Source of the DNA: Candidatus Forterrea multitransposorum CG_2015-17_Forterrea_25_41
GTDB lineage: Archaea; Iainarchaeota; Iainarchaeia; Iainarchaeales; CSSED10-239
Assembly: GCA_009392915.1 (NCBI GenBank)
Contig: CP045477.1
Coordinates: 64,001 to 128,000 of the forward strand
Reading direction: 5' to 3'
DNA: 64,000 nt
Part shown: piece by piece, positions 9,847 to 57,971 of the stretch
How the letters are laid out: the number at the start of each line of letters is the position of its first letter
Numbering within the stretch: the first letter of the stretch is position 1
The notes under the pieces: generated by a model
The model's input: only the letters and a program-made list of their open reading frames with translations
What the model was told of the DNA's origin: nothing
Databases searched by the model: none
Made by a program: the position numbers and the translations under genes

Positions 9847-9850
9847 ATTA

Positions 9851-11102: not shown

Positions 11103-11129
11103 ATAAAAAAGAGGATTTAAAGATTTATT

Positions 11130-31128: not shown

Positions 31129-31210
31129 GCAGGGGTTCCCGAGTGGTCAAAGGGGCAGGACTTAAGATCCTGTGCTTAGTGCTTCGCAGGTTCGAATCCT
31201 GTCCCCTGCA
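31129..31210 (+). tRNA. tRNA-Leu (anticodon UAA)
   Basis: Hand-folded cloverleaf: acceptor GCAGGGG/CCCCTGC, anticodon stem CAGGA/TCCTG with loop CTTAAGA, long variable arm, T-arm GCAGG-TTCGAAT-CCTGT. No encoded CCA. Confidence 0.9.
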
Positions 31211-32714: not shown

Positions 32715-33452
32715 ATGAATAAAAGTACAGAAAATAAAGCTATTGAAAATAATCCTTCTGAGAAAAGAACTCCAAATAATAGATTTCAAAAAACATTAGT
32801 AAATATTGATCTTTATTTAAAAAATGGTATCCATATTGGAACTAAATATAAAAATGGAGCTATGAGAAGATTTATCTTTAAATCAAGAAGTGATAAATTA
32901 AATGTAATGGATGTTCAGATAATTGATCAAAGAATAAAAACTTCAATTGAATTTTTATCAAAATTTAATCCTGAAGATGTTGTTTTTGTTTCAAGAAAAA
33001 AATATGCTTTATTTGGTTTAACTTTACTTGAAAAAACTTTTGGTTATAAAATAAAGGTTGGAAGATTTATTCCTGGTACTTTTACAAATCCAGATTCAGA
33101 ACACTTTATGGAACCAAAACTTGTTTTTGTAGTTGATCCTAATATAGATAGACAAGCTATTTTAGAAGCAACTAAAATTAGAGTACCTATAGTTGCTCTT
33201 GCAACAACTTCTAGTAATGTGAGAAATATTGATCTTTTAGTTCCTTTTAACAATAAAGGACGTAAATCTATTGCTCTTTATTTTTGGCTTTTAAACAGAG
33301 AGCTTCAATTAAAGAATGGTTTTATCAAGTCTGAAAAAGAATATAATTACAAAGTAGATGATTTTGTAATAACTAATGATGATAAAAAAGATGATGAAAC
33401 TAGAGATAGAAAACCAAGACCTAGATTTGTTAAGAAACCTTTTAGAAAATAA
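32715..33452 (+). CDS. rps2: 30S ribosomal protein S2 (uS2) with terminal extensions
   Basis: YLKNGIHIGTKYKN, VVDPNIDRQAILEATKIRVPIVAL. Charged N- and C-terminal tails. Confidence 0.93.
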   Translation: MNKSTENKAIENNPSEKRTPNNRFQKTLVNIDLYLKNGIHIGTKYKNGAMRRFIFKSRSDKLNVMDVQIIDQRIKTSIEFLSKFNPEDVVFVSRKKYALFGLTLLEKTFGYKIKVGRFIPGTFTNPDSEHFMEPKLVFVVDPNIDRQAILEATKIRVPIVALATTSSNVRNIDLLVPFNNKGRKSIALYFWLLNRELQLKNGFIKSEKEYNYKVDDFVITNDDKKDDETRDRKPRPRFVKKPFRK

Positions 33453-33579
33453 AAGGTTTTTAAATTTTTAAATAAGCTTTTAAATGTTACTATACATCTT
33501 ATATATAGTAATTAATTAATCTAAAAAGGTTAATATTGTTAACAATTATAAAAAAACGTAAAAAAGAGTGTGAAAAATC

Positions 33580-34305
33580 ATGAAAGATAATTATTTAGTT
33601 TCACTTTTAAAAGAACTTAATTTAACTGAATATGAAGCAAAAGCTCTTGTTACGTTATTTAAATTTTCAGAATCTGATGCTCCAACTATTAGTAGAAATT
33701 CTGAAATTCCAAAAACTAGAATTTATGATGTTTTAGATAGACTTAAAGATAAAGGTTTTGTTTTAGAAGTTTATAAAAGTCCTAAAACCTATAAAATAGT
33801 TAATCCTGAAGAAATTTTTAAAGGACTTTTAGATTTAAAACAAAATGAACTTTTAAATCTTTCAAAAAAAGTAGATGATGTTATTTTAAACTCAACATGG
33901 TCTTCTTATGCAAATAGTAATCCTGAAAAAGTATTACAAGTAAACAATATTAAAGATTATAATAAATTTTTATCACAAGAATTTGAAACTGCAGAAAAAG
34001 AAATACATGGTTTTACAAATCTTGATGAAAGAATTGATTCTTTAAAATCTGTTTTTACAAATAAAAATTTATCAATTAATATTTTAACAAATCCAGTTAC
34101 AAAAATACATGAAATTCCAAAACATGTAACTATTCAAGAAACTAACCATTCAATGGATGCTTTTGTTTTAGATAAAAAGAAAGTTATTATGGCTTTAAAT
34201 GATTTATCTTCTCCTAAAAAAGCATATAATTTAACTGTTCTTGAAAATAATCCTACCCTTGCAAATGCACTCTTATCTCATTTTAAGGATTACTGGAAAA
34301 AATAG
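33580..34305 (+). CDS. TrmB family transcriptional regulator
   Basis: The N-terminal wHTH LNLTEYEAKALVTLFKFSESDAPTISRNSEIPKTRIYDVLDRLKDKGFV is typical of TrmB. 241 aa. Confidence 0.85.
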   Translation: MKDNYLVSLLKELNLTEYEAKALVTLFKFSESDAPTISRNSEIPKTRIYDVLDRLKDKGFVLEVYKSPKTYKIVNPEEIFKGLLDLKQNELLNLSKKVDDVILNSTWSSYANSNPEKVLQVNNIKDYNKFLSQEFETAEKEIHGFTNLDERIDSLKSVFTNKNLSINILTNPVTKIHEIPKHVTIQETNHSMDAFVLDKKKVIMALNDLSSPKKAYNLTVLENNPTLANALLSHFKDYWKK

Positions 34306-34396
34306 TTTTTTTTAATATATTGAATACTTTTTTAAAGTTAACTATCTTTATAAATATATATAAGGGTATATTAACTTTTAAGAGGTAATAAATTAT

Positions 34397-36484
34397 ATGC
34401 AGTTAAAGAAACTAACTTTAGTTTTATTATTTTTATTTATTTTTTCCATACCAGTTTTTTCTTCTTCTATAACTCTTTATGTTTCCTCTCCTTTTTCCTC
34501 TTCATCTTCAAATTTTAGTATTTCTCCTTCACTTTCTTTTGACAAGTTATCTTTAGTTTCAGAAGATAATTTATCTTTATTAAGAGAGCAAAATATTATT
34601 GTTAAAGAAGAAATTATTAAAGAAAAAGAATCTTCTTTAGAAGATAATTCTCTGTTAGAAGAAATAAATTCTCCAAATCATATTTATGAAACTTATTTTC
34701 AAGATTCTGTAATGATTGGAGATGTTTATTTTCCAGAAGGTATAATTGATTCTTCTCAAGTAAGAGAAAGAAGAAATATTAACTCTCAGTCTACAGTTGA
34801 TAATATTTGGGGTACCACTCCATTAACTGGAGAATATCATATTCCTGTTTTTTTAGTTGATTTTTCAGATGTTCCACATACTCTTTCTAAAGAAGTTTTT
34901 GAAGAACAATTTAATTCTCCTCTTTACTTGGACGGTAATGGTACAAGTGTAAGTCAGTATTACAAGAAACAATCCTATGGTGAACTTGATATTACTTTTG
35001 ATGTTTATGATTGGAGAGAAATGCCTGAAACTTATGAATATTATAGTACAAGATTAGGTGTTTTTGGAGCTCAAACAATAGATCTTTTTGGAACTGGTCC
35101 AAATGCAATTGATTTAACTCAATATGATTCTGATAATGATGGTAGGATAGATGGTTTTGTAATTGTTCACGCTGGTTTTTCTTTACAGAACGCTGGTACT
35201 GGTCATATTAAGACATCTACTTTATTAATGTATTCTGATGAAATTTTAACCATTCAAGGTTTGCATTATGGTAATATAGCTGTTACTTCTGAGAGATATC
35301 CTAGTTGTTCTTCTGGTTTTAATGAAAATTTAATTCCATATCCAGATGATTGTAGAATTGGTGTTTTAGATCAAACACATGAGTTTGGTCATATTTTAGG
35401 TCTTCCAGACTTTTATGGTATTGATCCAAATACTGGTGGTCAATCTCCTGGTCTTCAAAACCTAACTATGATGATGATGTATGATGACATTCCTCAAAAA
35501 CCAATTAATTTAGATGCTTGGGCAAGATATTTTTTAGGTTGGATACAACCAACTGTAATTGAAGAGGGCATGGAAGGTGTTTATCCAGTTTATTCAATTG
35601 ACACCAATCCAGATGGTGCTTTTATTTTACAAGATCTAACTGAGATGGATGAACGTGAATTTTTTATAATTGAAAATAGATTTATGCAAAACTCCCCTTA
35701 TAATCAAGATACTTTTCTTTTAAACACTTCTCAACTAAATTGGGATTATTTAAATGGTCATTTTGGTGGAATTGCAGTTTATCATGTTGATGAGCAATAC
35801 ATTGAAGATAATTATCCAACTAACAGTATCATGTGGGATCCTGATGGAGATTTTTATGATGATACTATAGGGCATCCTGGAATCGTTTTTGAAGAAAATA
35901 TAAAATTTTCAGAAAATAATTGGGATTATTCATTAGGAGATTTATATTCTAGTGAACGTAATGCTGGTTTTGGAGATAATACTTTTGGTAATTTTGATAG
36001 ATACCAAAGATTTTATCCAGAATATAATATGTTATGGGATTATCACAATAAAGCCTATAATGGTAATTTAACTGGTGTTACTGTTGGCACTTTAAGTGGT
36101 AGTGGATCTATAGTTTATGCTTATCTTCAAAGTTATCAAGAAACTTTTAATGCTTTAATCTCTTCTCCAAAAAATAACAGATGGTATAAGTATACTAATA
36201 ATTTAAATTTCATTTCAAGTTATTATAATAATTTAGGAGATGTAAGTTGTGTTTGGGAAGATTCCAGTAATAATATTCTATCTCAAGATTGTGAATTTTC
36301 TGCAACTCCAGAAGATTTAGGTTTACCAATCAGTGAATGTTCTGAGAAAATCACTCTAACTTTAGAAATAACAGATCAAGAAACTGGTGATACAATTATT
36401 GATACTGTTGATATAAAGATTTATGAAACCATAAGAGATATTTGTGAGACTGCTCATAACAACACCCAAGCAGCCACAAAATAA
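34397..36484 (+). CDS. secreted M6-family (immune inhibitor A-like) zinc metalloprotease
   Basis: Sec signal peptide. HIPVFLVDFSD...SVSQYYKKQSYGELDITFDVYDW and HEFGHILGLPDFY (HExxH) fit the M6 domain. Confidence 0.8.
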   Translation: MQLKKLTLVLLFLFIFSIPVFSSSITLYVSSPFSSSSSNFSISPSLSFDKLSLVSEDNLSLLREQNIIVKEEIIKEKESSLEDNSLLEEINSPNHIYETYFQDSVMIGDVYFPEGIIDSSQVRERRNINSQSTVDNIWGTTPLTGEYHIPVFLVDFSDVPHTLSKEVFEEQFNSPLYLDGNGTSVSQYYKKQSYGELDITFDVYDWREMPETYEYYSTRLGVFGAQTIDLFGTGPNAIDLTQYDSDNDGRIDGFVIVHAGFSLQNAGTGHIKTSTLLMYSDEILTIQGLHYGNIAVTSERYPSCSSGFNENLIPYPDDCRIGVLDQTHEFGHILGLPDFYGIDPNTGGQSPGLQNLTMMMMYDDIPQKPINLDAWARYFLGWIQPTVIEEGMEGVYPVYSIDTNPDGAFILQDLTEMDEREFFIIENRFMQNSPYNQDTFLLNTSQLNWDYLNGHFGGIAVYHVDEQYIEDNYPTNSIMWDPDGDFYDDTIGHPGIVFEENIKFSENNWDYSLGDLYSSERNAGFGDNTFGNFDRYQRFYPEYNMLWDYHNKAYNGNLTGVTVGTLSGSGSIVYAYLQSYQETFNALISSPKNNRWYKYTNNLNFISSYYNNLGDVSCVWEDSSNNILSQDCEFSATPEDLGLPISECSEKITLTLEITDQETGDTIIDTVDIKIYETIRDICETAHNNTQAATK

Positions 36485-36570
36485 AAAAATAAGTAAACCA
36501 TTTATATACTTTATGTTATATAATTTATAATATAATTATTTAAAATAAAAAATAAATTAAGGTGAATATT

Positions 36571-39531
36571 TTGATAAAAATAAAAAAAGGACAAATTTCT
36601 TTAGAAGCAATTATTATAATTGGTGTTATTGTTTTAGCAAGTATTATATTTGCGACATTCTATATTTCTAATGTTAATAAAAAAATAGATACTGCAAGTA
36701 ATCTAGATCCTAATTTTTCTGGAATGATTGGATCTGATGAAATGGGGTCAACTGATCCTATAACTATTGGTGAAGAACCAGGTCCAGGCCCAGGTCCAGG
36801 AGGAAGTACTTGTGGTGATAATATTATTGAAGGTACAGAAGATTGTGATGGTACTAATTTAGGTGGTGCTACATGTGAGTCTGAAGGTCAAGGTACAGGA
36901 GATTTATCTTGTAATTCAAATTGTACTTTTGATTATTCTGGTTGTTCTAGTCCAACAGCAAGTTATACAATAACTTCAAGTCATGGATCAAATGGAACTA
37001 TTTTTCCTTTAGGAGCTGTAACAGTTTTAGAAGGGGCAAGTAAAAAATTTAATTTGTATCCAAATGCAGGTTATGATGTAGATACTGTTTCAATTGATGG
37101 TGCAGAAGTTTCTCTTAGTGAAAGAAGAAGTTATACTTTTAATAATGTTACTTCCGGTCATACTATTCATGTAACTTTTAAACCTTATGCTTCAAATGAA
37201 CATATTATTTTTGCAAGTAGTGGTTCTCATGGAACCATAGATCCTGCAAGAAATAATACAGTTATAGAAGGAGATGATATTACTTTTACATTTAATCCAG
37301 ATACAGGATATCGTGTAGGTAATGTCTATATTGATGATACTACTGTTGGTTCAGAACAAATAGAGATTATTAATGATTTTTCTTCAAAAGATTCTGAAAA
37401 TAATAATTTATATTTTTCAGAAGAAGATGTTTTATATTTTGCATCTGATACAGGGACAGGTACTTCTTCAAATTTAGTTTATACTTTTGAAGATGTAGAT
37501 GATAGTCATACTATTCATGTAACTTTTATATCAAACACAACTCCTACATATACTTTAGAATATATTGCTGGAGCAAATGGTAGTATTTCTGGTCCAAATC
37601 CTCAAACTGTAAGTCAAGGAGAAGATGGTACAGAAGTATGTGCTGTTGCAGATGAAGGTTATGAATTTTTTAAATGGGATGATGATTATTATTCTGAATG
37701 TAGAACTGAAACAAATGTAACAAGTAATCAAACATATACTGTTATCTTTAATGAAAATGCAGGTCAAACAATGGCTATGAATTTAGAAGGTGTTGAATCA
37801 ACTCCAATAAATCAAAACTTTGATGTTGTTGTTAATACTTCTGAAACTCCAGGAACTGTAAGTTATGGTTTAGTTGCAGGATTATTAATTTATAATGATG
37901 TTGCAGGAGATTATTTGCCAACAAACAATTGTTCTTATAACGGAACTTTTGCTTCAAATCATACACTTGAAACAAATCAATCTCCAGGTATTGAAAATTA
38001 TACTTTTACATGTAATACTTCTGGAAACTATAAATTTACATTTACAGCAACAGATACAACTAACTCAACAAATGATGTTTCAAGAGATAAATTAATTACT
38101 GTTGTAAATAACCAAACAGCAGCACCAACATTTTCAATTGATGGAGGTACTTATTTTAATGATCAAACATTAACTTTAAGTTCAACAACTCCTAGTGCAA
38201 CTATAAAATACACAACTAATGGTACTATCCCAACTTGTACTACAGGAACAACTTATTCTCCTGCAAGTCCAATTCAAATTAATCAAATTTTAACAGTAAA
38301 AGCAATTGCTTGTAAATCTGGATATATTGATAGTCAAGTTGTTACAGAAATTTATAATTTAAAAGTTGGATATCCAGAACCAAGTGTTAATCCTGGTGTA
38401 TATTCTCAAGCACAGACAATTACTCTTTCAACAGAAACAATTGGTGCAACTTTGTATTATTCAACAGATGGTTCTGATGCTTTTGATGGAAGTGTTTACG
38501 TTCCAGGAGAAGAAATTATAATTTCAAAACCATATACTGAATTAAGAGTGGCAGGAGAAAAATCAAATTATAATGATAGTTCAGAATTTGATGAATATTA
38601 TTATATAAATGGTTATGAATCTCCAACTCCAAGTATGGTTTTTACAAATTATTATGGAGATGCATATAATCTTGTAGGTGCTGCAAATTTAACTCACTCA
38701 GATGTTTTCTTTGAAGATGAAGAAAATAATTTAGTAAGATTTGTTAATCCTAAATTAAATGGAGATTATTTTAACGGAAGTAATGCTTCAGGAGCTACAT
38801 TAATAGATTGTGAGGCATTTTGTTCTGAAAAGTATCTTGGAGGAACTTGTGATTCTTTTGATAAAACTAATTATTCTGGAAATGCAAATAATTTGATATA
38901 TTATAGAAATATGATTCCTGGTTCTGGTGGTGCAAATGATGTTTTCCCTTACACAATTGGGGGTGAGTTATCTAATTCTCCTCAATGGGCTTATGCTTCT
39001 GGAGCTATTGGTGGACCAGATAGAGTAGGATACTTCACTTGTGATTTTTCACACACCTCCAGTCCAGAAGATGCAGACTTTGGATTTATTGATTTATATA
39101 CTGAAGATTTATTATTAAATTATGGTGATCCATTTGATGGTACAGAATTCTATTATGATTCTTCAAGAGTAACTTTTGATAATGTTACAAAGTCTGGTTC
39201 AGAATATACTTATTCAGGTTTAAATGTTGTAGGTAATTTTGACACACCAGGCGCAACTGCTCCAACAGGAACAGTTTATATACTTTCAGATGATTTTTCA
39301 CAAGCTTGTGATGCTGTATGTGATGCTTTATATCAAGAAAGTTCTTGTGAAAATTATGATACAACAGATGTATATACTGCTAAAGGAGTTTCATATAATT
39401 ATTATCCTCCTGAATATGCAACAATATTTAATCCTAATTTAAGTACAGGTTATTATTGGACATCTGGAAGTCAACTTTTCTATGATGTTTGGTCAGAAGC
39501 TGTTCTTTCAGAAGTTACTTGTTCAAAGTAA
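36571..39531 (+). CDS. very large type IV pilin-like (class III signal peptide) adhesin-type protein
   Basis: The track start GTG at 36562 lies inside the AGGTGA SD, so the TTG at 36571 is the likely start. N-terminus IKIKKG/QISLEAIIIIGVIVLASIIF (KG|QxSxE plus hydrophobic helix). Then a GPGPGPGG linker, a CGDNxxExxEDCDG Cys-rich repeat, three beta-repeat modules (two ending HTIHVTF), and two chitobiase-C-like modules (APTFSIDGGTY..., EPSVNPGVY...). Confidence 0.75.
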   Translation: MIKIKKGQISLEAIIIIGVIVLASIIFATFYISNVNKKIDTASNLDPNFSGMIGSDEMGSTDPITIGEEPGPGPGPGGSTCGDNIIEGTEDCDGTNLGGATCESEGQGTGDLSCNSNCTFDYSGCSSPTASYTITSSHGSNGTIFPLGAVTVLEGASKKFNLYPNAGYDVDTVSIDGAEVSLSERRSYTFNNVTSGHTIHVTFKPYASNEHIIFASSGSHGTIDPARNNTVIEGDDITFTFNPDTGYRVGNVYIDDTTVGSEQIEIINDFSSKDSENNNLYFSEEDVLYFASDTGTGTSSNLVYTFEDVDDSHTIHVTFISNTTPTYTLEYIAGANGSISGPNPQTVSQGEDGTEVCAVADEGYEFFKWDDDYYSECRTETNVTSNQTYTVIFNENAGQTMAMNLEGVESTPINQNFDVVVNTSETPGTVSYGLVAGLLIYNDVAGDYLPTNNCSYNGTFASNHTLETNQSPGIENYTFTCNTSGNYKFTFTATDTTNSTNDVSRDKLITVVNNQTAAPTFSIDGGTYFNDQTLTLSSTTPSATIKYTTNGTIPTCTTGTTYSPASPIQINQILTVKAIACKSGYIDSQVVTEIYNLKVGYPEPSVNPGVYSQAQTITLSTETIGATLYYSTDGSDAFDGSVYVPGEEIIISKPYTELRVAGEKSNYNDSSEFDEYYYINGYESPTPSMVFTNYYGDAYNLVGAANLTHSDVFFEDEENNLVRFVNPKLNGDYFNGSNASGATLIDCEAFCSEKYLGGTCDSFDKTNYSGNANNLIYYRNMIPGSGGANDVFPYTIGGELSNSPQWAYASGAIGGPDRVGYFTCDFSHTSSPEDADFGFIDLYTEDLLLNYGDPFDGTEFYYDSSRVTFDNVTKSGSEYTYSGLNVVGNFDTPGATAPTGTVYILSDDFSQACDAVCDALYQESSCENYDTTDVYTAKGVSYNYYPPEYATIFNPNLSTGYYWTSGSQLFYDVWSEAVLSEVTCSK

Positions 39532-39552
39532 TTTTAAAACAATTACTTTTAA

Positions 39553-39589
39553 AAAAGCTTAATTTCTTTTAAGCTTTTCTTTTTTTTTT
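39553..39589 (+). terminator. 10-bp hairpin plus long T tract
   Basis: AAAAGCTTAA (39553-39562) pairs with TTAAGCTTTT (39569-39578), followed by CTTTTTTTTTT. Confidence 0.5.
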
Positions 39590-39715
39590 CTTTTTATATA
39601 GCTTTTTTTAAATAATTATATTTAAAAACATTCCTCCATATATAATATTTATATATATAGTTCTTTTTTTTAAAAAAACTAAAAAACCAATGACACTATA
39701 AGGAGGTTGTTTGTC

Positions 39716-40255
39716 ATGTCTGAATTTATAAAATTCTCTGTACCTGAAGATTTAAGAGTTTTACAAGATGAAACTATTAAAAAATTATCAAAATCAGGTA
39801 AAATAAAAATAGGTATAAACGAAGTTACAAAAACAATTGAAAGAGGAAATGCAAAATTTGTTATTATTGCTGAAGATGTATCTCCTGCTGAAATTGTAAT
39901 GCATATACCAATAATCTCAAAAGAGAAAAAAATCCCTTTTTCTTATGCAAAAACTAAAGAAGATTTAGGTAAAATGGTTGGTATCTCTGCAAAAGCAAGT
40001 TGTGTTGCTATAACAGATGCTGGTTCAATGCAAAAAGAATTAACAACATTAATTGATAAGATTGAAGAAGTTTCTGGTGGTAAAAAAGCAGCTGTAAAAA
40101 CAGAAGATGTTAAAAAAGAAAAACCTTCTCCTAAAAAAGAAGAAGTAAAAAAAGAAGCTCCTTCTCCTAAAAAAGAAGAAGAAGTAAAAAAAGAAACACC
40201 TAAAGAAGAAAAACCAGAAAATAAAGAAGAAGTTAAAAAAGAAAACAAAGAATGA
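39716..40255 (+). CDS. rpl7ae: 50S ribosomal protein L7Ae (eL8) with repetitive K/E/P-rich C-terminal tail
   Basis: GINEVTKTIERGNAKFVIIAEDVSP.EIV.HIP......IPF. AGGAGG SD with the ATG at 39716 (track TTG at 39707). The tail carries PSPKKEE(E)VKKE repeats. Confidence 0.92.
   Translation: MSEFIKFSVPEDLRVLQDETIKKLSKSGKIKIGINEVTKTIERGNAKFVIIAEDVSPAEIVMHIPIISKEKKIPFSYAKTKEDLGKMVGISAKASCVAITDAGSMQKELTTLIDKIEEVSGGKKAAVKTEDVKKEKPSPKKEEVKKEAPSPKKEEEVKKETPKEEKPENKEEVKKENKE
40124..40198 (+). repeat. in-frame tandem repeat (36/39 nt) inside the L7Ae tail
   Basis: CCTTCTCCTAAAAAAGAAGAAGTAAAAAAAGAAG occurs at 40124 and again at 40160 with one extra GAA codon. Confidence 0.7.
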
Positions 40256-40267
40256 GGTGAATAATTT

Positions 40268-40480
40268 ATGGCTGATGAAGGAATACCTGCAGAAGTAGTA
40301 GAAGTTGTAGGTAGAACTGGTTCTCGTGGAGAAGCTACCCAAGTTCTTTGTAGAGTTATTGATGGTTATGAGAAAGGTAGAATTAAAAAAAGAAATGTCA
40401 AAGGTAATGTTAAGAAAGGAGACATTCTATTATTAATGAATCCAGAAACAGAAGCAAAGGACATTAAGGCACGTAGGTGA
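40268..40480 (+). CDS. rps28e: 30S ribosomal protein S28e (eS28)
   Basis: PAEVVEVVGRTGSRGEATQVLCRV...GR...RNVKG.V..GDIL.L.E.E.EA. Confidence 0.95.
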   Translation: MADEGIPAEVVEVVGRTGSRGEATQVLCRVIDGYEKGRIKKRNVKGNVKKGDILLLMNPETEAKDIKARR

Positions 40481-40486
40481 TTTTTA

Positions 40487-40681
40487 ATGCAATGTACATT
40501 TTGCGGAAAAGAAGTTCCAAAAGGGACTGGTGTTTTATATGCAAAGAAAGATGGAACTACTTTTATATTTTGTTCAAGCAAATGTAAAATTAATGTTCTT
40601 GAAAAAAAATTCAAAGCACATAAAACCAAATGGACAAATAAATATCATGTAGAAAAAGAAAGACATTTAAAGAAAAAATAA
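40487..40681 (+). CDS. rpl24e: 50S ribosomal protein L24e (eL24)
   Basis: CTFCGKEVPKGTGVLYAKKDGTTFIFCSSKC. L7Ae-S28e-L24e synteny. Confidence 0.95.
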   Translation: MQCTFCGKEVPKGTGVLYAKKDGTTFIFCSSKCKINVLEKKFKAHKTKWTNKYHVEKERHLKKK

Positions 40682-47261: not shown

Positions 47262-47624
47262 ATGGTTACAATAAAAAATATGGCTGATAATCCTGAAAAG
47301 ATATGGTTGCAATTTCTTATATTGAGATTGATTTATGAAAATCCAACTTATGGTTATAAGTTAATTAAAGATATTAATAAAATAAGTAATGGAAAATATA
47401 TTGTTAAATCAGGTACTATGTATACTACACTTAGACGAATGGAAAAAAATAAATTACTAAATTCTATTTGGGAAAAAAATGAGTCTGGTCCTAGTAGTAG
47501 AATTTATAATCTAACTATAAAAGGTAAAATGAAACTTAAAAATTTACTTAAAATGGTTGTTGAAAGAAAAAAAATAATAGATCAGTTAATTAAATTTTAT
47601 GAAAAAGAATTTAAAGAACAATAA
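47262..47624 (+). CDS. PadR family transcriptional regulator
   Basis: LILRLIYENPTYGYKLIKDI.......VKSGTMYTTLRRMEKNKLL....E......RIYNLT.KG. Confidence 0.88.
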   Translation: MVTIKNMADNPEKIWLQFLILRLIYENPTYGYKLIKDINKISNGKYIVKSGTMYTTLRRMEKNKLLNSIWEKNESGPSSRIYNLTIKGKMKLKNLLKMVVERKKIIDQLIKFYEKEFKEQ

Positions 47625-47648
47625 ATATAATGTAAATTAAGATTATTT

Positions 47649-47873
47649 ATGAAAATAAAATTACATCAAATATTACTTTGGATTACAATAATTTCTTTAA
47701 TAGTTTTAGTTATATCTACTGTGCCTTTATTAGTTAGTTATTTAAAAAATCTAGATGTTAAATTTCCAATGTTTGTAACTATTCATGTTTGGTCTGGTAT
47801 TATACTATTAGTGGTTGTATTATTAAGAGTTTTTATTAATCGTAAAAAATTAAAGATAATGCTTACTAATTAG
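47649..47873 (+). CDS. small two-TM membrane protein
   Basis: 74 aa with two hydrophobic helices (the second contains HVWSG). Sits between padR and the COG1361-like gene. Confidence 0.55.
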   Translation: MKIKLHQILLWITIISLIVLVISTVPLLVSYLKNLDVKFPMFVTIHVWSGIILLVVVLLRVFINRKKLKIMLTN

Positions 47874-47897
47874 TTATTTTAAAAATTAAGGAGTTAA

Positions 47898-49103
47898 TTG
47901 ATTAATATGTTTTCAAAAAAAATTATTTTAGTATCTGTTTTATTTTTACTTACATCTTTATTTTCGGGGTTGATTTTCTCTGAAAGATATATAGATAGTT
48001 CTTATGTTCAAGTTATTGCTCAAGAAGTAAGTCCTGAACCAGTAGAGCCTGGTCAAGATTTTTTACTAAAAGTTAGAGTTCATAATTTTGGAACAGTGGA
48101 TGCTAAAAATGTAAAAATTAATCTTGATTTAAATTATCCTTTTTATTTAAAAAATACAAGTGAGTCTTATATTGACTTTAATTCGATTTGTTCTAATTGT
48201 TCTGCAGAAAATACATATTATTTTACAGTTTCAAGTTCTGCAGTTTCAGGGATATATCCAATACATTTTAATATATCTGAAATAAATAATGAAACTGTTT
48301 CTTTTAAACCTCAAATAATAGATATTTCCATATTAGGTAAACCTGATTTAGTTTTAGAAACCATAAAAGTAGATCAAAATATTTCTGCCGGAGATATATT
48401 TAATATTAAATTTTTATTAAGGAATATAGGTACTGGGAATTCTAGAAATATAAAAATAATTCCTAATTCTGATGATTTTATGCTTATTGGGACAAATACT
48501 AAATGGTTTGAAGAATTAGGTCCCAATAAAGAAATTATTTTTGATTTAAATTTTATTTCAAACAAAGATTTAATTTCAAATAGTTATATTTTTCCTATAG
48601 ATCTTGAATTTTTAGGAGAAAAACAAAATTTTTATACCTCTTCATATAATATTGGAATTAATCTTTTAGGAAAAGCAGATTTATCTTTACAAAATTTAAA
48701 AATTACTCCTTTAAACCCTTCTTTAAAAGATTTAATTAATTTTGAAGGAATTATTGAAAATATAGGAAATGGAAAAGCAAATAATGTTTCTTTAGAATTA
48801 TTTGTTTCAAATGATGAGAATTATAAATATTATATTGGTCAATTAAATAAAGATGATGATGCTCCTTTTTATTTTAATGAAATTAAATTTAATTCTGTTG
48901 GAAATAATAAAGTAAATTTGATTGTAAATTATGATGATGATTACGGTAATTATAAAATAGAAATTCCTTTAAATCAAAATATAAATAAATCTAATAATTT
49001 ATCTTTATTTTTTATAGTTTTATTTTTATTTTTGGTTTTATTTTTTAGTTTGTATTTATTAAAAAATAATAAACACAATAAAAATAAAAAAATAAAGAAT
49101 TGA
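47898..49103 (+). CDS. secreted COG1361/CARDB-like repeat protein with C-terminal TM and basic tail
   Basis: Signal peptide, then repeated EPVEPGQDF.L.V.V.N.G...AKNV.I.L-type beta-sandwich modules. C-terminus LSLFFIVLFLFLVLFFSLYLLKNNKHNKNKKIKN. Start is TTG 47898 or ATG 47907. Confidence 0.7.
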   Translation: MINMFSKKIILVSVLFLLTSLFSGLIFSERYIDSSYVQVIAQEVSPEPVEPGQDFLLKVRVHNFGTVDAKNVKINLDLNYPFYLKNTSESYIDFNSICSNCSAENTYYFTVSSSAVSGIYPIHFNISEINNETVSFKPQIIDISILGKPDLVLETIKVDQNISAGDIFNIKFLLRNIGTGNSRNIKIIPNSDDFMLIGTNTKWFEELGPNKEIIFDLNFISNKDLISNSYIFPIDLEFLGEKQNFYTSSYNIGINLLGKADLSLQNLKITPLNPSLKDLINFEGIIENIGNGKANNVSLELFVSNDENYKYYIGQLNKDDDAPFYFNEIKFNSVGNNKVNLIVNYDDDYGNYKIEIPLNQNINKSNNLSLFFIVLFLFLVLFFSLYLLKNNKHNKNKKIKN

Positions 49104-49114
49104 TTTAGATTTAT

Positions 49115-50314
49115 ATGAATAAAAAAGATATTAAGCTAATGTTTTTTTTAGCTTATAAAAATATAATTAAAAGTAAATCTACTTTTATTGTAATTGTAGC
49201 TGTAATGGCTATGAGTTTTTTGTCAATAACTTTTTTTTCTGCAATTATTGATGGGTTAAGTTATGAATTTGAAGAGTCGATGATTGATGGTCAAACAGGG
49301 CATTTAATGATCGAACCATCTAATGAAGAAAGTTTTATATTTAATTCTGATAGATTAGAAAAAAATATTTCTAAAATTCCAGGAGTAATTGGTGTTTCTT
49401 CAAGATTAGAATCAAATATTTTAATTACTTATAAAAATGAAGAGCTAGGGGCACCTGTTTTCTTTATTGATCCTATTGATGAACAAAAAGTATCTAATTT
49501 TCATGAAAGTTTAATAGAAGGTAGTTTTCTTTCATATAAAGATACATCTGAAATTATTATTGGTTCTGATTTACTAGAACAGTATGCGCCTATAGATGAT
49601 ACTAAGAAAAGGTTTAATCTTAGAATAGGGGATAATATTATTTTAACTTTTAATAATGGTTATAAAAAAGAATATAAAATCAAAGGTATTTTTAAAACAG
49701 GTTCTAAGTTTAATGATGATAAAATTTTAATTAATAAAGAAGAATATTTTTCAATATTTAATAAAGAAGATATTTCTCATAAAATACTTGTTAAACTTCC
49801 TTCAAGAGGTCTTGAAAAAGAATATATTCAAAAGATAGAAGCTTTAGGAATAATTGAACAGATTAACCCTTGGGAAACTAAGATTGGTATGATTAAACAA
49901 TTTGTAGGAAGTCTTCAAATTACAAATCAGATAACTGGTTTTATAGGTTTATTAACTGCATTTGCAACAATTTACATAATTATTTTTATAAATGTAACTA
50001 ATAAAAGAAAGCAGATAGGTATATTAAAAGCTATAGGTATAAAAAAAAAAATTATTCTTGGATCATATATTATTCAATCTTTTATTTATGGTTTTGTAGG
50101 TGTTATTTTTGGAAATATTATTATGCAAATTTTGTTGGCTTTACTTGCAAGTTATCCATTATCTATGCCTATTGGGGATGTAGTTCCATTACTAACAATA
50201 GGTAAATTATTAACTACCTCTTTTATTTTAATTTTAGCCTCTATTGTTGCAGGTTTTTTCCCTTCTAGAAAAGCTTCTAATGATAATATCTTAGATGCTA
50301 TATTTGGAGGATAG
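49115..50314 (+). CDS. ABC transporter permease, FtsX/MacB-like
   Basis: 399 aa. N-terminal TM, large extracytoplasmic domain, then three C-terminal TMs with KRKQIGILKAIG (FtsX family hallmark). Confidence 0.85.
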   Translation: MNKKDIKLMFFLAYKNIIKSKSTFIVIVAVMAMSFLSITFFSAIIDGLSYEFEESMIDGQTGHLMIEPSNEESFIFNSDRLEKNISKIPGVIGVSSRLESNILITYKNEELGAPVFFIDPIDEQKVSNFHESLIEGSFLSYKDTSEIIIGSDLLEQYAPIDDTKKRFNLRIGDNIILTFNNGYKKEYKIKGIFKTGSKFNDDKILINKEEYFSIFNKEDISHKILVKLPSRGLEKEYIQKIEALGIIEQINPWETKIGMIKQFVGSLQITNQITGFIGLLTAFATIYIIIFINVTNKRKQIGILKAIGIKKKIILGSYIIQSFIYGFVGVIFGNIIMQILLALLASYPLSMPIGDVVPLLTIGKLLTTSFILILASIVAGFFPSRKASNDNILDAIFGG

Positions 50315-50317
50315 ATT

Positions 50318-51007
50318 ATGATTAAAAATATTATTGAAGTAAATAAACTTGAAAGAATATATTCTAATGGAATTGTTAAAACTTATGCCTTAAAAGACGT
50401 TTCTTTAAGTATAAAACCTGGTGAATTTGTTGCAATTATGGGGCCTAGTGGTTCTGGAAAAAGCACTTTACTTCATCAGTTAGGACTGTTAGATACTCCA
50501 ACTAATGGAAGTATTATTATTGATAATGAAGATGTATCGAAATTAACTGATAAACAAAAAACTACCTTTAGATTAGAAAAATTAGGTTATGTTTTTCAGT
50601 CATATAATTTATTACCAGAACTTAATGTTATTGAAAATGTTTTTTTAACCTCTATGGCTAAAGGTTTAGATCCTAAAGAATATAATTTGAGAGCAAAAGA
50701 TATTCTTGAAAAAGTAGGTTTAAAAGATAGATTGTATTATTATCCTTCTGAACTTTCTGGAGGTCAACAACAAAGAGTTTCTATTGCAAGAGCATTAGTT
50801 AATAAACCTAAAATTTTATTTGCAGATGAACCAACTGCAAATCTTGATTCTGATTCTTCTCAAGATATAATTGATTTATTTAAAAAATTAAATAAAGAAA
50901 TTAATCAAACTATTGTTATGGTAACACATGAATTAGAAGAAGGTAAAAAAGCAGATAGGATAATTTGGATTAAAGATGGTATTCTAGATAAGTCTGTAAA
51001 AGTTTAA
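50318..51007 (+). CDS. ABC transporter ATP-binding protein (MacB/LolD-like)
   Basis: Walker A GPSGSGKST, signature LSGGQQQR, Walker B ILFADEPT. Confidence 0.93.
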   Translation: MIKNIIEVNKLERIYSNGIVKTYALKDVSLSIKPGEFVAIMGPSGSGKSTLLHQLGLLDTPTNGSIIIDNEDVSKLTDKQKTTFRLEKLGYVFQSYNLLPELNVIENVFLTSMAKGLDPKEYNLRAKDILEKVGLKDRLYYYPSELSGGQQQRVSIARALVNKPKILFADEPTANLDSDSSQDIIDLFKKLNKEINQTIVMVTHELEEGKKADRIIWIKDGILDKSVKV

Positions 51008-52560: not shown

Positions 52561-53496
52561 ATGAGTTATTTATCTAAACTTAAAAGAAATAATAAAACAT
52601 ATTATTATCTTGTAGAAAATATTCCTATATCTAAAGGTAGGCGAAAACAAATTAGAAAATATATAGGGACAATTAAACCTACAGATCAAAAATTATCTTT
52701 AGAACTATTAAAGTTTGAAAAAGAAATTACTTCTAAAAAAAAACAAATGCAAGGATTTACCTATTTAACTAAAGAAGAAATAAAAGAAGTAGATGAAATT
52801 AATTCAAATTTTTGGAAAAAATATAATAAATTATCAAAAACTGAGAGAGAAGAATTTTGGAATAATTTTATTGGAATTTTTGTTTTTAACACAAACTCAA
52901 TAGAAGGTTCAACTTTAACATTAAAGGAAGTTGAACTACTATTATCTGAAAATATATCTCCAAATAGACCTTTAGAAGATGTTTTAGAAGCAAAATCTGC
53001 AAAAAAAGCAATTAATTTTATTTTAAATTATAAATCTGATTTGTCAATAGATTTAATTACTAAAATTCATAAAATATATTTTAAAGAAAGCTTTCCAGAT
53101 ATAGCTGGTAAATTTAAAAGATTAAATAATAGAATAAAAGGATCAAAATTTGATACTACTCCAAAAGAACTAGTTTTAACTGATTTAAAAATACTTATAG
53201 ATAATTATAAAAAATTTAAAAAAGAATTACATCCAATAGAATTATCTGCTTGGTTGCATTGGTCTTTTGTAAAAATTCATCCTTTTCAAGATGGAAATGG
53301 AAGAATTTCAAGATTACTTATGAATTTTATACTTTTTAAAAATAAATATGCTTTAATAGATATTAAAACAAAAGAAAAACAAACATATTTTAATTCTCTT
53401 GAAAAATGTAATTATTTGAATAATGGAAAACCATTAGCTCAAAGATTAGTTAGAAGATTTAAAAAACAGTATAAAAATATATTTTCAAATTTATAG
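52561..53496 (+). CDS. Fic/Fido-domain protein (class II, internal inhibitory motif)
   Basis: Active-site loop HPFQDGNGRISR (HxFx[DE]GNGRxxR). Upstream TNSIEG matches the [ST]xxxE[GN] inhibitory helix motif. Confidence 0.88.
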   Translation: MSYLSKLKRNNKTYYYLVENIPISKGRRKQIRKYIGTIKPTDQKLSLELLKFEKEITSKKKQMQGFTYLTKEEIKEVDEINSNFWKKYNKLSKTEREEFWNNFIGIFVFNTNSIEGSTLTLKEVELLLSENISPNRPLEDVLEAKSAKKAINFILNYKSDLSIDLITKIHKIYFKESFPDIAGKFKRLNNRIKGSKFDTTPKELVLTDLKILIDNYKKFKKELHPIELSAWLHWSFVKIHPFQDGNGRISRLLMNFILFKNKYALIDIKTKEKQTYFNSLEKCNYLNNGKPLAQRLVRRFKKQYKNIFSNL

Positions 53497-53525
53497 TTTT
53501 ATTAATTTTTTTTTAAAAGAAAAAA

Positions 53526-54272
53526 CTATTTATAACTTAAAAGCTTTTTAACATTTATATTCTCATTAAAAATCTCTTTTGACATTCCTTCAACATGTCC
53601 AGCACCAACAACAACCACAATGCTGTTAACATCTTCTTGTTGTAAGATCTGTCTAATACCATAAGCCATAAACTGATCTCTCTCATCAATCATTATTCTC
53701 TTTAAGGTCTTATGTCTTTTCATGAAAATTTCAAGAAGTTTATTTAGTTTGTCACCACTCTCTTCATCATCAACGCTTTTTAAAAGAACATTTACATCAA
53801 AGTCTTTACCAAGTTCTTTTCTTGTGTTAAATCCTCCAAAGAAAAGTCTAAATTTATCTCTAAAGGTTAAATTTTTTAAAAGTTTACTTAAAGTAAACTC
53901 TGCATCTCTATCCAGAAGTAAAAGCTTTGATTTATTCTCTTGAGCAGAAATAACTCCTTGCATCATTTCTTCTCCAGGAGTTGTATCAAATTTACTTGCA
54001 ATTTTTTTTTGAAATTTTTGTAAAACATAATATACTAAAAAAAGTCCAGGTTTTTTAGCTCTAAAAATATCTTTTAATCTAATCTCTCTTTTATTTTCTT
54101 TTGTCATCATGCTTTGAAATCTTTTTCTATCAAGCTCAATTCCAACAACATCAGGTTTTTCTAAATCAATAGTTTCTTTTACTTTTTCCTTGCTTTTTTT
54201 AGAAATATGTGCTGTTCCAACAATAATTATTTTTTTATTATTATAAAAAATAGTTTTAATCATAATTTTCAC
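53526..54272 (-). CDS. TraB/GumN family protein
   Basis: IIIVGTAHISKKS...V...I....PD.V.IELD..R and a C-terminal VVVVGAGHVEG. Confidence 0.8.
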   Translation of the reverse strand: MKIMIKTIFYNNKKIIIVGTAHISKKSKEKVKETIDLEKPDVVGIELDRKRFQSMMTKENKREIRLKDIFRAKKPGLFLVYYVLQKFQKKIASKFDTTPGEEMMQGVISAQENKSKLLLLDRDAEFTLSKLLKNLTFRDKFRLFFGGFNTRKELGKDFDVNVLLKSVDDEESGDKLNKLLEIFMKRHKTLKRIMIDERDQFMAYGIRQILQQEDVNSIVVVVGAGHVEGMSKEIFNENINVKKLLSYK

Positions 54273-54380
54273 TTAAAATAAACATTTAAATAGGTTTTTA
54301 ATATATTATATATTATAAATAATAGGAAACATTTTTAATATGTTTTTAAAATATTTAAATTAAGGAAAATCAAGATATAT

Positions 54381-57300: not shown

Positions 57301-57959
57301 TTGAAGTATCTGGTCAAAACTTTTATTCTAGTAATTTAATTTTTGTAAATGACTCTAATGTAGATAAAGTAATTTCTTTTATTGAAGTAATACCTAAAGA
57401 ATTTGAAAAATCTTCAGATAATATTTATTTTGATAGAAATATTGTTGTAATTGATAAAGATCCAATAATTCTTTATAATTTAGTAATTCCTAAAAATTCT
57501 TCTCTTACAACAAAATATATTAGTCAAACAGCAATTACAAGTTTTGATATTTTAACTAAATTTGATGCAATTGTTTACAAGTCTCCTCTTCTTTTAACTG
57601 GATCTGTAAATTTAGAAGATTTAAATTTTGAAAAACCTTTAATTGATAGTAAATCTTTATTTATGATAGCAGTTGTTCTTTTAATAATAATTATCTTACT
57701 TTTAGTAATCTGGATGGTGGCTTCTGGTCGTAAGAAAAAAGAAGATGTCTTTAAAGAAATGGAACCTAAGGATGCTATGAATAAATATCTTGGAAATAAA
57801 CTAAATAGTAATTCTCAAGAAAAATCTTCAACTGATTCTTCTTCATCTAAAACTTTAGAAGAAAAAGAAGAAGAGCATAAAAGTGATCTTGAAAAGAAAA
57901 AGAAGTATGATAGTAATTATGAGTTTATTTTAGATGCTGTTAAAAGAAGTAATAAATAA
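54381..57959 (+). CDS. large surface protein (1192 aa) with FN3-like modules, C-proximal TM and long charged tail
   Basis: Signal peptide. Recurrent SGL(K/E)EY.(I/V)Y...(Y/F)Y....A.D.A.N modules (three seen). TM LFMIAVVLLIIIILLLVIWMV followed by an ~100-aa K/E/S-rich tail. Confidence 0.8.
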   Translation: MKNKILIIFLFTILLSTFIFSDPVVKINDNLTTYTNSDSENFYVEVSNTGDNCEVESDFISINLSSDAASSFPYLIYCNLERNYSGYFSVDFSTNTPTPPIPNVLVNNEDTVIADYNGFTANLVVDTINTITGTFDLNSVDSVVNNYYKGDVEVTSLSSFSDAHSGLKEYYIYIVEVDSVNDYRDDYYKRLIVDVNETSIDLGTSTTVSDGNYFVLVEALDYAENLAIPSQVILNKKNMYVDNTAPQVTSFSLGSFSEGTTYYVPSTTTTLTLLIEDDGVGVRNEPLYTQIDRDSVKLADYNSILGGFFFDFTTVDYDIDGSYELAATDLLGNLNEKTFSIMIDETSPTTPTISTVTRAVDNNVTISNWGTSTDSGSGLKEYKVYRSTSSFTEVSNQDLICTVSAAASKTCLDSTSKSDDTRYYYGVTAVDNAGNNSPVVTASIKTGPELDIYIDLEDSDFVNTVTPEITLEYGSDVNAVRFSCNASTFTSWVEVSGTSEVYESFNVTSGNGCNTDQGDKIIYVEARSEDDPYLITRESFEFELDSKAPTIPSNIEVLEQANGSLNISWTSSTDVNGSGLEEYRIYYSESESVSKSSQYMTSSDEEYIFNPNEDKTFYFKISAIDEALNESDLSSIASGTAKRFGPSFTFNASPKNLIDDVYYLKKGNVLFTITSSEELKQTPIIRLKIGNSPYKSISAIYSNLITTFNYSLEESGDSILEITGTNNNNETTTDTFNFIVDAEVPTFTADYNFFEDTKLYEFKISDFSDDVFRVQYLFNNVEEVCFIEDSNNNYLCSLDSTLYKDGNHKMYVLVYDRALNYETEIISFEIDNVDEALILKENLVAEINTNIFTIEDRISFLQAISLEVSQDVLDKFSEAKEKVVLAKSLEDSNNFSEAVNTYTSVNNSLLEILEVLPTENVLKTKTIEIDLLDNSFDLNTVILDQNILTDNLSFYDVNNQDLNFISVSREFSVFEVSGQNFYSSNLIFVNDSNVDKVISFIEVIPKEFEKSSDNIYFDRNIVVIDKDPIILYNLVIPKNSSLTTKYISQTAITSFDILTKFDAIVYKSPLLLTGSVNLEDLNFEKPLIDSKSLFMIAVVLLIIIILLLVIWMVASGRKKKEDVFKEMEPKDAMNKYLGNKLNSNSQEKSSTDSSSSKTLEEKEEEHKSDLEKKKKYDSNYEFILDAVKRSNK

Positions 57960-57971
57960 TTTTGAAAAAAT

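Follow-up and report, generated by a model that had tools for sequence, protein, structure and literature searches.

The 64,000-nucleotide (nt) stretch of Candidatus Forterrea multitransposorum DNA analyzed here (hereafter, the window) carries three consecutive plus-strand genes that encode a TrmB-family regulator, a secreted M6 metalloprotease and a large pilin-like surface protein, and the question raised by this locus is whether these genes belong together. The initial annotation read them as a compact, co-regulated surface module wedged between two ribosomal blocks. Open reading frame (ORF) calling recovered all three genes at the coordinates reported there (33580-34305, 34397-36484 and 36562-39531), each preceded by an AT-rich spacer (127, 91 and 77-86 nt, respectively, GC content 0.09-0.17), and the flanks indeed consist of translation and transcription genes, with the S2 block on the 5' side and the L7Ae block on the 3' side. 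Comparison with related genomes leads us to favor, with moderate confidence, a different partition of the locus into two units, namely a resident trmB gene and an approximately 5.25-kb cassette encoding the M6 protease and a modular pilin, such that the pilin-like protein would serve for display, the protease would act at the surface, and TrmB would likely control the protease gene.

The genomic contexts of the M6 genes were collected by exact-protein look-ups and a scan of a genome collection, followed by our own ORF calling and labeling with phmmer; neighbors carrying a class III signal, the N-terminal signature of archaeal pilin-like proteins, were marked with a hidden Markov model (HMM) built from the N-terminus of the partner protein. 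Species-level relatives, in which the M6 protein is 86-91% identical, keep the order S2-TrmB-M6-pilin-L7Ae. In more distant relatives, the context is wholly changed, and M6 keeps a same-strand neighbor that combines the K(G/A)Q-x-S-x-E signature with a hydrophobic helix. Such a neighbor accompanies the M6 genes of this clade in 19 of the 28 dereplicated loci, and most of the exceptions are cut by contig ends. Of the 44 genes next to M6, 20 belong to class III, compared to 7 among the remaining 304 genes of these loci (odds ratio 35, P = 6e-15), and within the window this N-terminus is found in only one of 83 ORFs. At least 15 different flanking contexts harbor the pair, and both gene orders are represented, with the partner either upstream or downstream, and where a genome encodes two M6 paralogs, there is one class III partner per paralog (L013 and L026; L022 and L032). 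The link between the protease and the pilin-like protein made in the initial annotation therefore holds as a conserved pair, given that the adjacency survives rearrangement, order swap and paralog duplication. Comparison of the gene neighborhoods shows that the two cassette genes have been inherited and relocated together across the lineage, which is strong evidence for a functional pairing of the M6 protease with the pilin-like protein.

The class III partners range in length from 81 to 1578 amino acids (aa), and they have in common the helix with a short spacer and a Gly-rich linker, as well as a C-G-x-x-x-x-E-x-x-E motif. The distribution of the CHB_HEX_C domain ties the two proteins together in another way: this domain is found on the partner in the window, L006, L007 and L010, and is fused to the C-terminus of M6 in P0024-P0057, L024, L028, L030 and L035, where the Sec-type signals are kept; in L021, the protease and the partner both possess it. 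The presence of the same domain either on the partner or on the protease fits two parts of one extracellular device. No protein joining the class III N-terminus to the M6 domain was found among the M6 homologs and loci examined. The similarities of the M6 proteins and of the partner N-termini are weakly correlated (Mantel r = 0.24; 14 of 2000 permutations), which is consistent with co-inheritance and falls short of proof of interaction.

The third gene has a different history. TrmB contexts were retrieved by a metagenome scan with a TrmB alignment followed by context labeling. The 241-aa TrmB follows S9-RpoN-S2 in all of the approximately 17 loci with upstream DNA, and a TrmB-family gene of approximately 240-255 aa is located at S2 across L092-L113 and also in three distant DPANN metagenome-assembled genomes (MAGs; L114-L116), labeled Diapherotrites or Micrarchaeota, in which TrmB is approximately 36-38% identical and the gene order is S2-(Memo)-TrmB-GluRS-L7Ae-S28e-L24e-NDK, with the Memo gene inserted between S2 and TrmB in L114. 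Given that the TrmB gene resides 3' of S2 and ahead of L7Ae-S28e-L24e across DPANN loci, the two ribosomal blocks of the initial annotation are, judging by gene order, one conserved supercluster with a resident regulator. The window itself belongs to the Iainarchaeota, within DPANN, as indicated by the labels of its relatives (Candidatus Iainarchaeum, 'Ca. ainarchaeum' or Diapherotrites).

The slot between TrmB and L7Ae is variably filled. It is empty in L100 and L113, where TrmB is followed by L7Ae-S28e-L24e-aIF5B, and contains a 109-aa gene in L094, a lone minus-strand gene of 142-151 aa in L107 and L108, an 881-aa membrane protein in L095, class III gene(s) alone in L101 and L104-L106, class III and M6 in L099, class III, M6 and again class III in L109/L030, and M6 with class III in the window clade. 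The most telling comparison is with L113, in which S2, TrmB and L7Ae are 87-90% identical to the window proteins; the flanks of L113 and L100 show 82-83% DNA identity to the window, TrmB directly abuts L7Ae in both, and the orthologs of M6 and the pilin (54% and 42% identity, respectively) are encoded elsewhere on the same 671-kb contig of L113, between EF1A-S10 and PolD. Relative to L113 and L100, the window thus differs by an indel of approximately 5.25 kb (about 34.31-39.59 kb) that spans the two genes together with the M6 promoter and the terminator. Flanking direct repeats were not seen at the indel edges by eye, no repeat-finding tool having been run, and no integrase-like gene was seen in the cassette, which holds only the M6 and pilin genes. 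Conversely, the pair occurs without a linked TrmB gene in L006/13, L007, L010, L014, L015, L021, L023-26, L028 and L035.

The rates of evolution follow the same division. In four relatives, the identities of TrmB, S2 and L7Ae are 98/99/99, 90/87/88, 76/76 (TrmB and S2 only) and 57/62/59%, whereas those of M6 and the adhesin are 91/85, 54/42, 42/38 and 40/31%, that is, much faster divergence than in TrmB. On these sequence comparisons, TrmB is a core, housekeeping-like gene of the ribosomal supercluster that evolves at the rate of ribosomal proteins. Because of its fixed synteny with S2, its rate of evolution and its presence in loci that lack the pair, TrmB is not part of the inserted surface module, and because TrmB directly precedes L7Ae in L100 and L113, only the M6 and pilin genes interrupt the ribosomal neighborhood. 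Accordingly, the initial reading is not supported in two respects: the three genes do not stay together as a unit among relatives (loci L094, L100, L107, L108 and L113 have TrmB and lack the pair, and the pair is found without TrmB elsewhere), and it is not three genes that are wedged into the ribosomal cluster.

The assignment of the 33580-34305 product (plus strand, 241 aa) to the TrmB family, with its winged helix-turn-helix (wHTH) domain, is secure (PF01978, 70.8 bits against a cutoff of 25.6, E = 8e-20, aa 10-77). The protein appears TrmBL2-like in architecture and aligns over its full length to TrmBL2 structures (5bpd, 5bqt and 5box). As in TrmBL2 of Thermococcales and in the wider TrmB family, an N-terminal TrmB wHTH is present, here followed, as in TrmBL2, by a short C-terminal domain and no full sugar-binding module. 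The match to TrmBL2 is weak (E = 8e-9 for the structures, and 42.6 bits against a cutoff of 530 for the NCBIfam model), and every NCBIfam equivalog cutoff is missed by far, the TrmB and TrmBL1 models scoring 41-66 bits against cutoffs of 600-650. The TrmB equivalog model covers only the N-terminal wHTH (aa 6-80) and the TrmBL1 model the N-terminal half (aa 1-168, aligned to positions 1-162 of the 341 in the model), so that the domain models detect no C-terminal sugar/effector-binding domain of the kind present in the approximately 340-aa TrmB and TrmBL1 proteins. Unlike TrmBL2, the window protein is resident in the ribosomal supercluster after S2 across DPANN, and in contrast to the TrmB family, for which the TGM motif is TATCAC-N5-GTGATA, it is linked with a GTTAAC palindrome.

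This palindrome provides a possible regulatory connection between the resident regulator and the cassette. The two palindromes singled out in the initial annotation both exist and share the GTTAAC core, which recurs across the lineage as a cis-element of TrmB and M6 promoters specifically. The first, ATTGTTAACAAT (33535-33546), is a perfect 12-bp palindrome located 34-45 nt upstream of the TrmB ATG and abuts the TATA-like box TTATAAAAAAA of the TrmB promoter (33546-33556). The second, AGTTAACT (34336-34343), extends to AAAGTTAACTAT (34334-34345), a candidate operator that matches the palindrome ATAGTTAACTAT in 11 of 12 positions, lies 52-63 nt upstream of the M6 ATG and is followed, 1 nt downstream, by the TATA-like box TTTATAAATA of the M6 promoter (34347-34356). 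Neither L003 nor L004 conserves the 12-mer ATTGTTAACAAT as such; L004 and L113 retain GTTAAC beside the TATA box (GGTTAACC-TTTATAAAAA), and the TrmB promoters of the window clade and L113 can be described as GGTTAAC(C)/GTTAACAA beside TTTATAAAAA. In L093-L098, ATAGTTAACTAT is found, perfect or with one mismatch, 53-89 nt upstream of the TrmB ATG and abutting a TATA-like box, and the spacer sequence around it diverges. The AAAGTTAACTAT element of the M6 promoter is conserved in L003, L004 and L092.

When one mismatch is allowed, the intergenic matches to the 12-mer ATAGTTAACTAT across 690 kb of related loci are all located upstream of TrmB or M6. Among 355 dereplicated upstream regions, GTTAAC is present in 9 of 21 for TrmB, 8 of 22 for M6, none of 32 for class III genes and one of 280 for other genes; the corresponding counts for AGTTAACT are 6 of 21, 6 of 22 and none of the remaining 312. 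The spacing between GTTAAC and the TATA box is 0-6 nt. The element also occurs at M6 promoters that are not linked to TrmB (L006, L015, L016, L025, L026, L028 and L035). Because the GTTAAC palindrome abuts the TATA box in both promoters, the simplest and most likely reading is that TrmB autoregulates and controls the protease gene wherever the latter is located; such control appears plausible even where the two genes are unlinked. A half-site, ATAGTT(AA), is present just 3' of the TATA-like box in the L7Ae promoter (window 39657-39662) and, as ATAGTTAA, in L094 and L095 (position -62) and in L107 (position -14). The same factor may bind here as well, although this is a weak signal, given that a 6-8-mer in AT-rich DNA can occur by chance.

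Archaeal transcription termination uses oligo-T runs, and the distribution of such runs is compatible with the partition of the locus. Two T5 runs follow S2, and T8 and T6 runs located directly after the trmB stop codon (34306-34333, plus strand) likely form an oligo-T terminator that marks the approximate left edge of the cassette. A scan for T-runs of at least 4 nt found none in the spacer between the M6 and pilin genes, so that read-through from M6 into the pilin gene is possible. The pilin gene is preceded by a canonical-looking promoter, AAACCATTTATATA (36495-36508, plus strand), composed of AACC and a TTTATA-type box; an AACC(A)TTTATAAA element occurs upstream of many class III genes in relatives and differs from the TrmB and M6 promoters. 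The cassette ends with the hairpin AAAAGCTTAA/TTAAGCTTTT and a T10 run (39553-39589, plus strand), the approximate right edge of the indel; the hairpin (39553-39578) has a perfect 10-bp stem and an energy of -9.4 kcal/mol, T10 occupies 39580-89, and further T5, T7 and T8 runs extend to 39671. The description of this hairpin as the strongest terminator in the window is correct insofar as it is the best intergenic, correctly oriented candidate; in a ViennaRNA scan of all T-runs, it ranks fifth by energy among 464 T-run-associated hairpins, the four stronger ones lying within coding sequence. Our first terminator scan missed this hairpin because at least three G-C pairs were demanded. Given the T-runs after trmB, their absence between M6 and the pilin gene and the hairpin with T10 after the latter, the predicted transcription units are trmB alone and M6 together with the pilin gene, the latter with an additional internal promoter. 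A scan for sigma-70 promoters yielded 61 sites compared to 51 expected and is uninformative for an archaeon.

The protease encoded at 34397-36484 (plus strand) conforms to what was initially proposed, a secreted, InhA-like M6 zinc metalloprotease of 695 aa, with respect to family, catalytic motif and a Sec-like N-terminus. It scores 42.1 bits with PF05547 (cutoff 22) and 108 bits with TIGR03296, marginally below the cutoff of 110.8. The N-terminal sequence, MQLKKLTLVLLFLFIFSIPVFSSS, resembles a typical Sec signal (aa 1-23, read from the sequence), after which come a probable pro-region (aa 24-129, of low confidence in the structural model), the catalytic domain (aa ~130-560) and, toward the C-terminus, an Ig/PKD-like domain (aa ~579-678); a C-terminal anchor is lacking. 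The zinc motif HEFGHILGLPDFY spans aa 328-340, with HEFGHILGLPD at aa 328-338 (nt 35378-35410), and H328, E329, H332, G335, D338 and M359 are invariant among 23 M6 homologs; by these residues, the catalytic site is intact. The best fold match of the AlphaFold2 model (pLDDT 72, pTM 0.70) in the PDB is the InhA2 zymogen (4yu5/4yu6; E = 6e-13, approximately 720 aligned columns, TM-score 0.40), and because residues 20-129 are disordered or of low confidence in the model, the enzyme is probably zymogenic.

The similarity to InhA1 and InhA2 of Bacillus (MEROPS M6) includes the HEXXHXXGXXD zinc site, conserved Met residues, predicted Sec-dependent secretion and a multi-domain organization with a C-terminal Ig-like domain, the entire model aligning to the InhA2 zymogen (Bacillus anthracis). 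The differences are an identity of only approximately 11% in the structural alignment with InhA2, a long low-complexity N-terminal region, the pairing of the subfamily with a class III signal gene, of which we know no counterpart for InhA, and membership in a distinct archaeal subfamily: approximately 58 clusters score at least 215 bits, after which scores drop to 96 bits for ordinary bacterial M6 proteases. Several members of this subfamily are found on contigs binned as bacterial, namely L031 (Cloacimonetes UBA5553) and L034 ('uncultured bacterium'), where M6 has no class III neighbor, and P0024, P0046, P0050 and P0053, which are Bacteroidales-binned and carry fused CHB_HEX_C repeats; these members suggest either horizontal transfer between co-resident anaerobes or mis-binning. 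A scan of viral contigs with the M6 profile produced a single match, at 22% identity, and no sign of carriage by viruses.

The partner, encoded at 36562-39531 (plus strand), had been described as a 989-aa pilin-like adhesin, and the class III N-terminus and binding-type repeats agree with this description; the length requires revision. The true start is probably TTG at 36571, which yields 986 aa as in the NCBI call, because this codon is located 6 nt after the Shine-Dalgarno-like AAGGTGA (36559-36565). The N-terminus reads (M)IKIKKG|QISLEAIIIIGVIVLASIIFATFYIS and shows the class III features, that is, a charged leader, [KR]G|Q, a Glu at +5 and a hydrophobic helix (KKG|QISLE and helix within aa 1-45). 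The PF04021 Class_IIIsignal score is borderline (23.5 bits against a cutoff of 23.7), and the call is backed by the lineage N-terminus HMM (E = 2e-21) and by the L006 ortholog (PF04021, 25.0 bits). A Gly/Pro linker (aa ~70-82) and a Cys-rich CG..I.EG.E.CD module (aa ~83-128) are followed by InlB-B/Flg_new_2 repeats (best stretch aa 330-399), two CHB_HEX_C_1/Fn3_assoc domains (aa ~527-670) and an orphan C-terminal region of 310 aa with two Cys-containing repeats (nt 38599-39528). For the C-terminal 310 aa, a phmmer search against 1.84 billion representatives retrieved the protein itself and one marginal match, and an AlphaFold2 model of this region based on four orthologs was unusable (pLDDT 33). 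The full-length search retrieved four orthologs, the remaining matches being InlB-B repeats in unrelated bacterial proteins, with no functional clue.

A functional tie between an M6 protease and pilin-like proteins has a bacterial parallel, the export of the M6 protease PrtV of Vibrio cholerae by the type II secretion system (T2SS), a case of export linked to type IV filaments. As a rule, archaea have no outer membrane for a T2SS-like step to cross; the window M6 bears what looks like an ordinary Sec signal, and the pilin-like gene next to it encodes a giant surface protein rather than a pseudopilin. Among the closest known counterparts of the partner are the Epd/DUF361-type pilins of Methanococcus and the class III sugar-binding proteins of the Sulfolobales bindosome, which possess the same K-G|Q-x-S-x-E signature and hydrophobic helix and, in the case of the bindosome, a non-pilin functional domain on a pilin-like anchor, in line with the concept of functionalized type IV filaments (bioRxiv 10.64898/2026.04.22.720090; PMC6393860). 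The window protein differs from these in that its passenger is an adhesin-like array of approximately 900 aa and not a solute-binding protein, its gene is paired with a protease gene and not with an ABC transporter as in the bindosome, and assembly genes are not found nearby; its processing and assembly are predicted. PilB of Streptococcus sanguinis, a modular type IV pilin in which a pilin module is grafted to adhesive modules (PMC8179133), is similar in that the graft lends the filament or anchor a direct binding function, and differs in belonging to another domain of life; the passenger in the window is much larger, and a globular pilin head is apparently missing, with only approximately 25 residues between the helix and the linker.

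Taken as a working model, these features suggest the following sequence of events. A prepilin peptidase would cut the pilin-like protein after KKG, and the helix would anchor the protein in the membrane or in a type IV filament-like fiber; the flexible stalk would then expose the Ig-like binding domains and the lineage-specific orphan tip. The soluble, Sec-exported protease would act at the same surface, either on material captured by the partner, in the scavenging of peptides or in an attack on the surface of another cell, or while docked on it. TrmB would autoregulate and would control the M6 gene via the GTTAAC palindrome, and the pilin gene would be driven by its own promoter and also by read-through from M6. 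The co-regulated surface unit of the initial annotation thus survives in part: the protease/pilin pair and the GTTAAC element shared by the TrmB and M6 promoters stand, and TrmB as a member of the module does not. The accompanying suggestion of host-surface remodeling is purely speculative.

Several observations weigh against this model. The passenger domains of the partners differ among the loci (CHB_HEX_C, InlB-B, RCC1 propeller, GLUG, DUF285 or none recognized), class III genes without M6 exist (L106 and L104), the M6 and pilin genes each have a promoter of their own, and the physical or functional interaction of the two proteins is something that we infer. The Fisher P value overstates independence because the loci are phylogenetically related, for which the at least 15 contexts and the order swaps compensate. 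Neither a prepilin peptidase nor filament ATPase or platform genes were found in the 64-kb window or among the Pfam matches of the flanks retrieved with gene tables, the other loci having been screened only for the window markers. On the regulatory side, GTTAAC is a candidate operator for which TrmB would be the binding factor, and TrmBL2, the nearest relative of solved structure, is a largely non-specific chromatin protein that binds DNA with little specificity. Motif statistics show no over-representation of AGTTAACT or of the 12-mer in the window alone, the GTTAAC signal emerging only when promoter positions and relatives are taken into account. Finally, a third site is present in which GGTTAAC abuts ATATAAAT (window 14409-14422, and also 14368-14373), 143 nt upstream of the L3 ORF (14552), and the window contains four intergenic GTTAAC sites against a shuffle mean of 1.1; the combination of GTTAAC and a TATA box upstream of the L3 operon points away from a switch dedicated to the protease and toward a wider regulon or an element of a promoter class. 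The putative TrmB regulon may accordingly include the main ribosomal protein operon.

It is conceivable, although we consider it rather unlikely, that TrmB acts as a general, TrmBL2-like chromatin protein or as a global repressor with no specific tie to the protease, with GTTAAC being a B recognition element (BRE)-like sequence or the site of another factor. The full-length alignment to TrmBL2 structures, the conservation at the level of ribosomal proteins together with the fixed place in the ribosomal supercluster, and the location of GTTAAC always just 5' of a TATA-like box, the L3 operon included, all agree with such a role, but a generic element should not be missing from 279 of 280 other upstream regions, among them strong promoters such as those of L7Ae and the class III genes; moreover, a 12-bp palindrome suits a dimeric wHTH protein and is kept upstream of trmB while the flanks diverge. 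The same absence and the variable spacing of 0-6 nt from the TATA box, which is unlike BRE, led us to reject a generic BRE as the main reading of GTTAAC.

The pair itself admits two other explanations. Under the first of these, the protease is a maturation or shedding enzyme of its pilin-like neighbor that would, for example, cut the Gly/Pro linker and so release or activate the passenger; this is a live alternative, albeit an improbable one. The finding of one protease per class III partner, paralogs included, is what such a role would produce, and the conserved Gly-rich linker and Cys-rich module are the only constant region open to recognition by a dedicated protease. However, InhA-type M6 enzymes are broad-specificity extracellular proteases, and in many relatives M6 carries CHB_HEX_C binding repeats of its own, which suggests an external target.

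Alternatively, adjacency might not reflect joint function if permissive slots at operon boundaries gather fast-evolving surface genes, with M6 and class III being merely abundant among genes for secreted proteins. The highly variable content of the slot (from empty through a 109-aa gene, an 881-aa transmembrane protein and class III to M6 with class III), the surface genes that are found also beside the L3 operon (L022, L028 and window 11130-14273), the mutually unrelated passenger domains and the separate promoters would all be expected in this case. Nevertheless, we regard this explanation as unlikely given that the background of class III genes is approximately 2% (7/304; 1/83 in the window) against 45% beside M6, that the pair persists through relocation, order inversion and paralog duplication, that CHB_HEX_C is fused to M6 in sister lineages, and that M6 always has a Sec signal and the partner always a class III signal, with fusion of the two not seen.

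The proposal of a single dedicated module inserted between ribosomal blocks, with TrmB as the private regulator of protease and adhesin, is very unlikely and, on the synteny evidence, largely refuted: although S2-TrmB followed by class III and/or M6 recurs (the window clade, L009/L099, L030/L109, L032, L101 and L104-L106) and the GTTAAC element is common to the TrmB and M6 promoters, TrmB follows S2 without the pair in five loci, GluRS occupies the slot after TrmB in the distant DPANN MAGs, TrmB evolves at the rate of S2 and L7Ae and the pair much faster, the pair is far from TrmB in L006/L013, L007, L010, L014 and others, and the T8 and T6 runs part trmB from M6.

The remainder of the window, which has a G+C content of approximately 25% and is archaeal DNA, provides some context for the locus. 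The upstream flank reads S13-S4-S11-RpoD-tRNALeu-L18e-L13-S9-RpoN-S2, with tRNA-Leu(TAA) (31129-31210) embedded in the ribosomal cluster between RpoD and L18e, and the downstream flank reads L7Ae-S28e-L24e-aIF5B-S6e-aIF2gamma. An Rfam scan of 33000-40500 revealed nothing but two sub-threshold snoRNA-like matches, each within coding sequence. L7Ae (39716-40255) ends in a Lys/Glu-rich repeat tail of approximately 60 aa (KKEEVKKE.PSPKKEE...), the antisense strand of which is a source of strong spurious hairpins and ORFs; the tail varies in length among relatives, in which L7Ae comprises 154-259 aa. Directly 5' of the L3 operon, the region 9304-14273 resembles a second, unrelated surface-protein locus, with a multi-transmembrane ORF that shows a weak exosortase/archaeosortase-like match (9304-9846; PF09721, E = 2e-4), two short minus-strand ORFs without a Pfam match (9851-10551), a secreted Tyr/Asn-rich ORF of 118 aa (10746-11102) and a 1047-aa protein with a Sec signal and a C-terminal transmembrane anchor, also without a Pfam match (11130-14273). 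In L028, the M6 and class III genes are adjacent to and upstream of the ribosomal L3 gene (L028:1944-8175), and in L022 they lie upstream of L3 with one 658-aa gene in between (L022:1-7840); in these small genomes, genes for surface proteins are recurrent neighbors of ribosomal operons. Within 47262-51007 / 52561-59156, there is an accessory set that consists of PadR, a CARDB protein, FtsX and an ABC ATPase (a MacB-like exporter set), a Fic/DOC protein, TraB/PrgY (minus strand), and a 1192-aa Big_13 surface protein with a geranylgeranyl-reductase-like gene. In L016, the M6 gene is directly preceded by two ORFs, for a secreted protein of 1128 aa and an FAD-type protein of 394 aa, which by size and order are candidate counterparts of the latter two genes.

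All components of the locus are members or variants of known families, namely M6/InhA, TrmB/TrmBL2-like regulators and class III signal 'functionalized' pilins. Full-text searches of a paper library returned no account of the GTTAAC element, of an archaeal M6-pilin gene pair, or of a fixed place for TrmB at the S2-L7Ae junction. The pair is a well-supported new gene association made of familiar parts, as judged from comparative genomics, with a mechanism that we infer. A bolder possibility, which we put forward only tentatively, is that the locus encodes an undescribed two-part extracellular device, in which an M6 protease would be tethered or fed by a modular pilin and its promoter would be wired via GTTAAC, an element present also ahead of the L3 operon, to a TrmBL2-like regulator resident in the ribosomal supercluster.

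There is also a lesson of method here, in that the adjacency of three genes in one genome hinted at a module, which comparative synteny turned into a core gene and a movable pair. DPANN archaea have tiny genomes, and their modes of feeding on, or attachment to, partners are largely unknown. A protease gene that travels with a rapidly diversifying, pilin-anchored surface protein is a concrete candidate for contact or scavenging machinery, and it widens the idea of functionalized type IV filaments from sugar-binding proteins to a protease system. The fixation of TrmB at S2/L7Ae across DPANN, with a candidate operator shared with the protease promoter, yields a testable prediction of a regulator and its target, which is rare for an uncultured lineage. 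If the reading as a two-part device is true, surface proteolysis or attachment would be coupled to the translation and growth program of the cell, in what would be a minimal regulatory circuit of an archaeon that has a reduced genome and possibly depends on a host.

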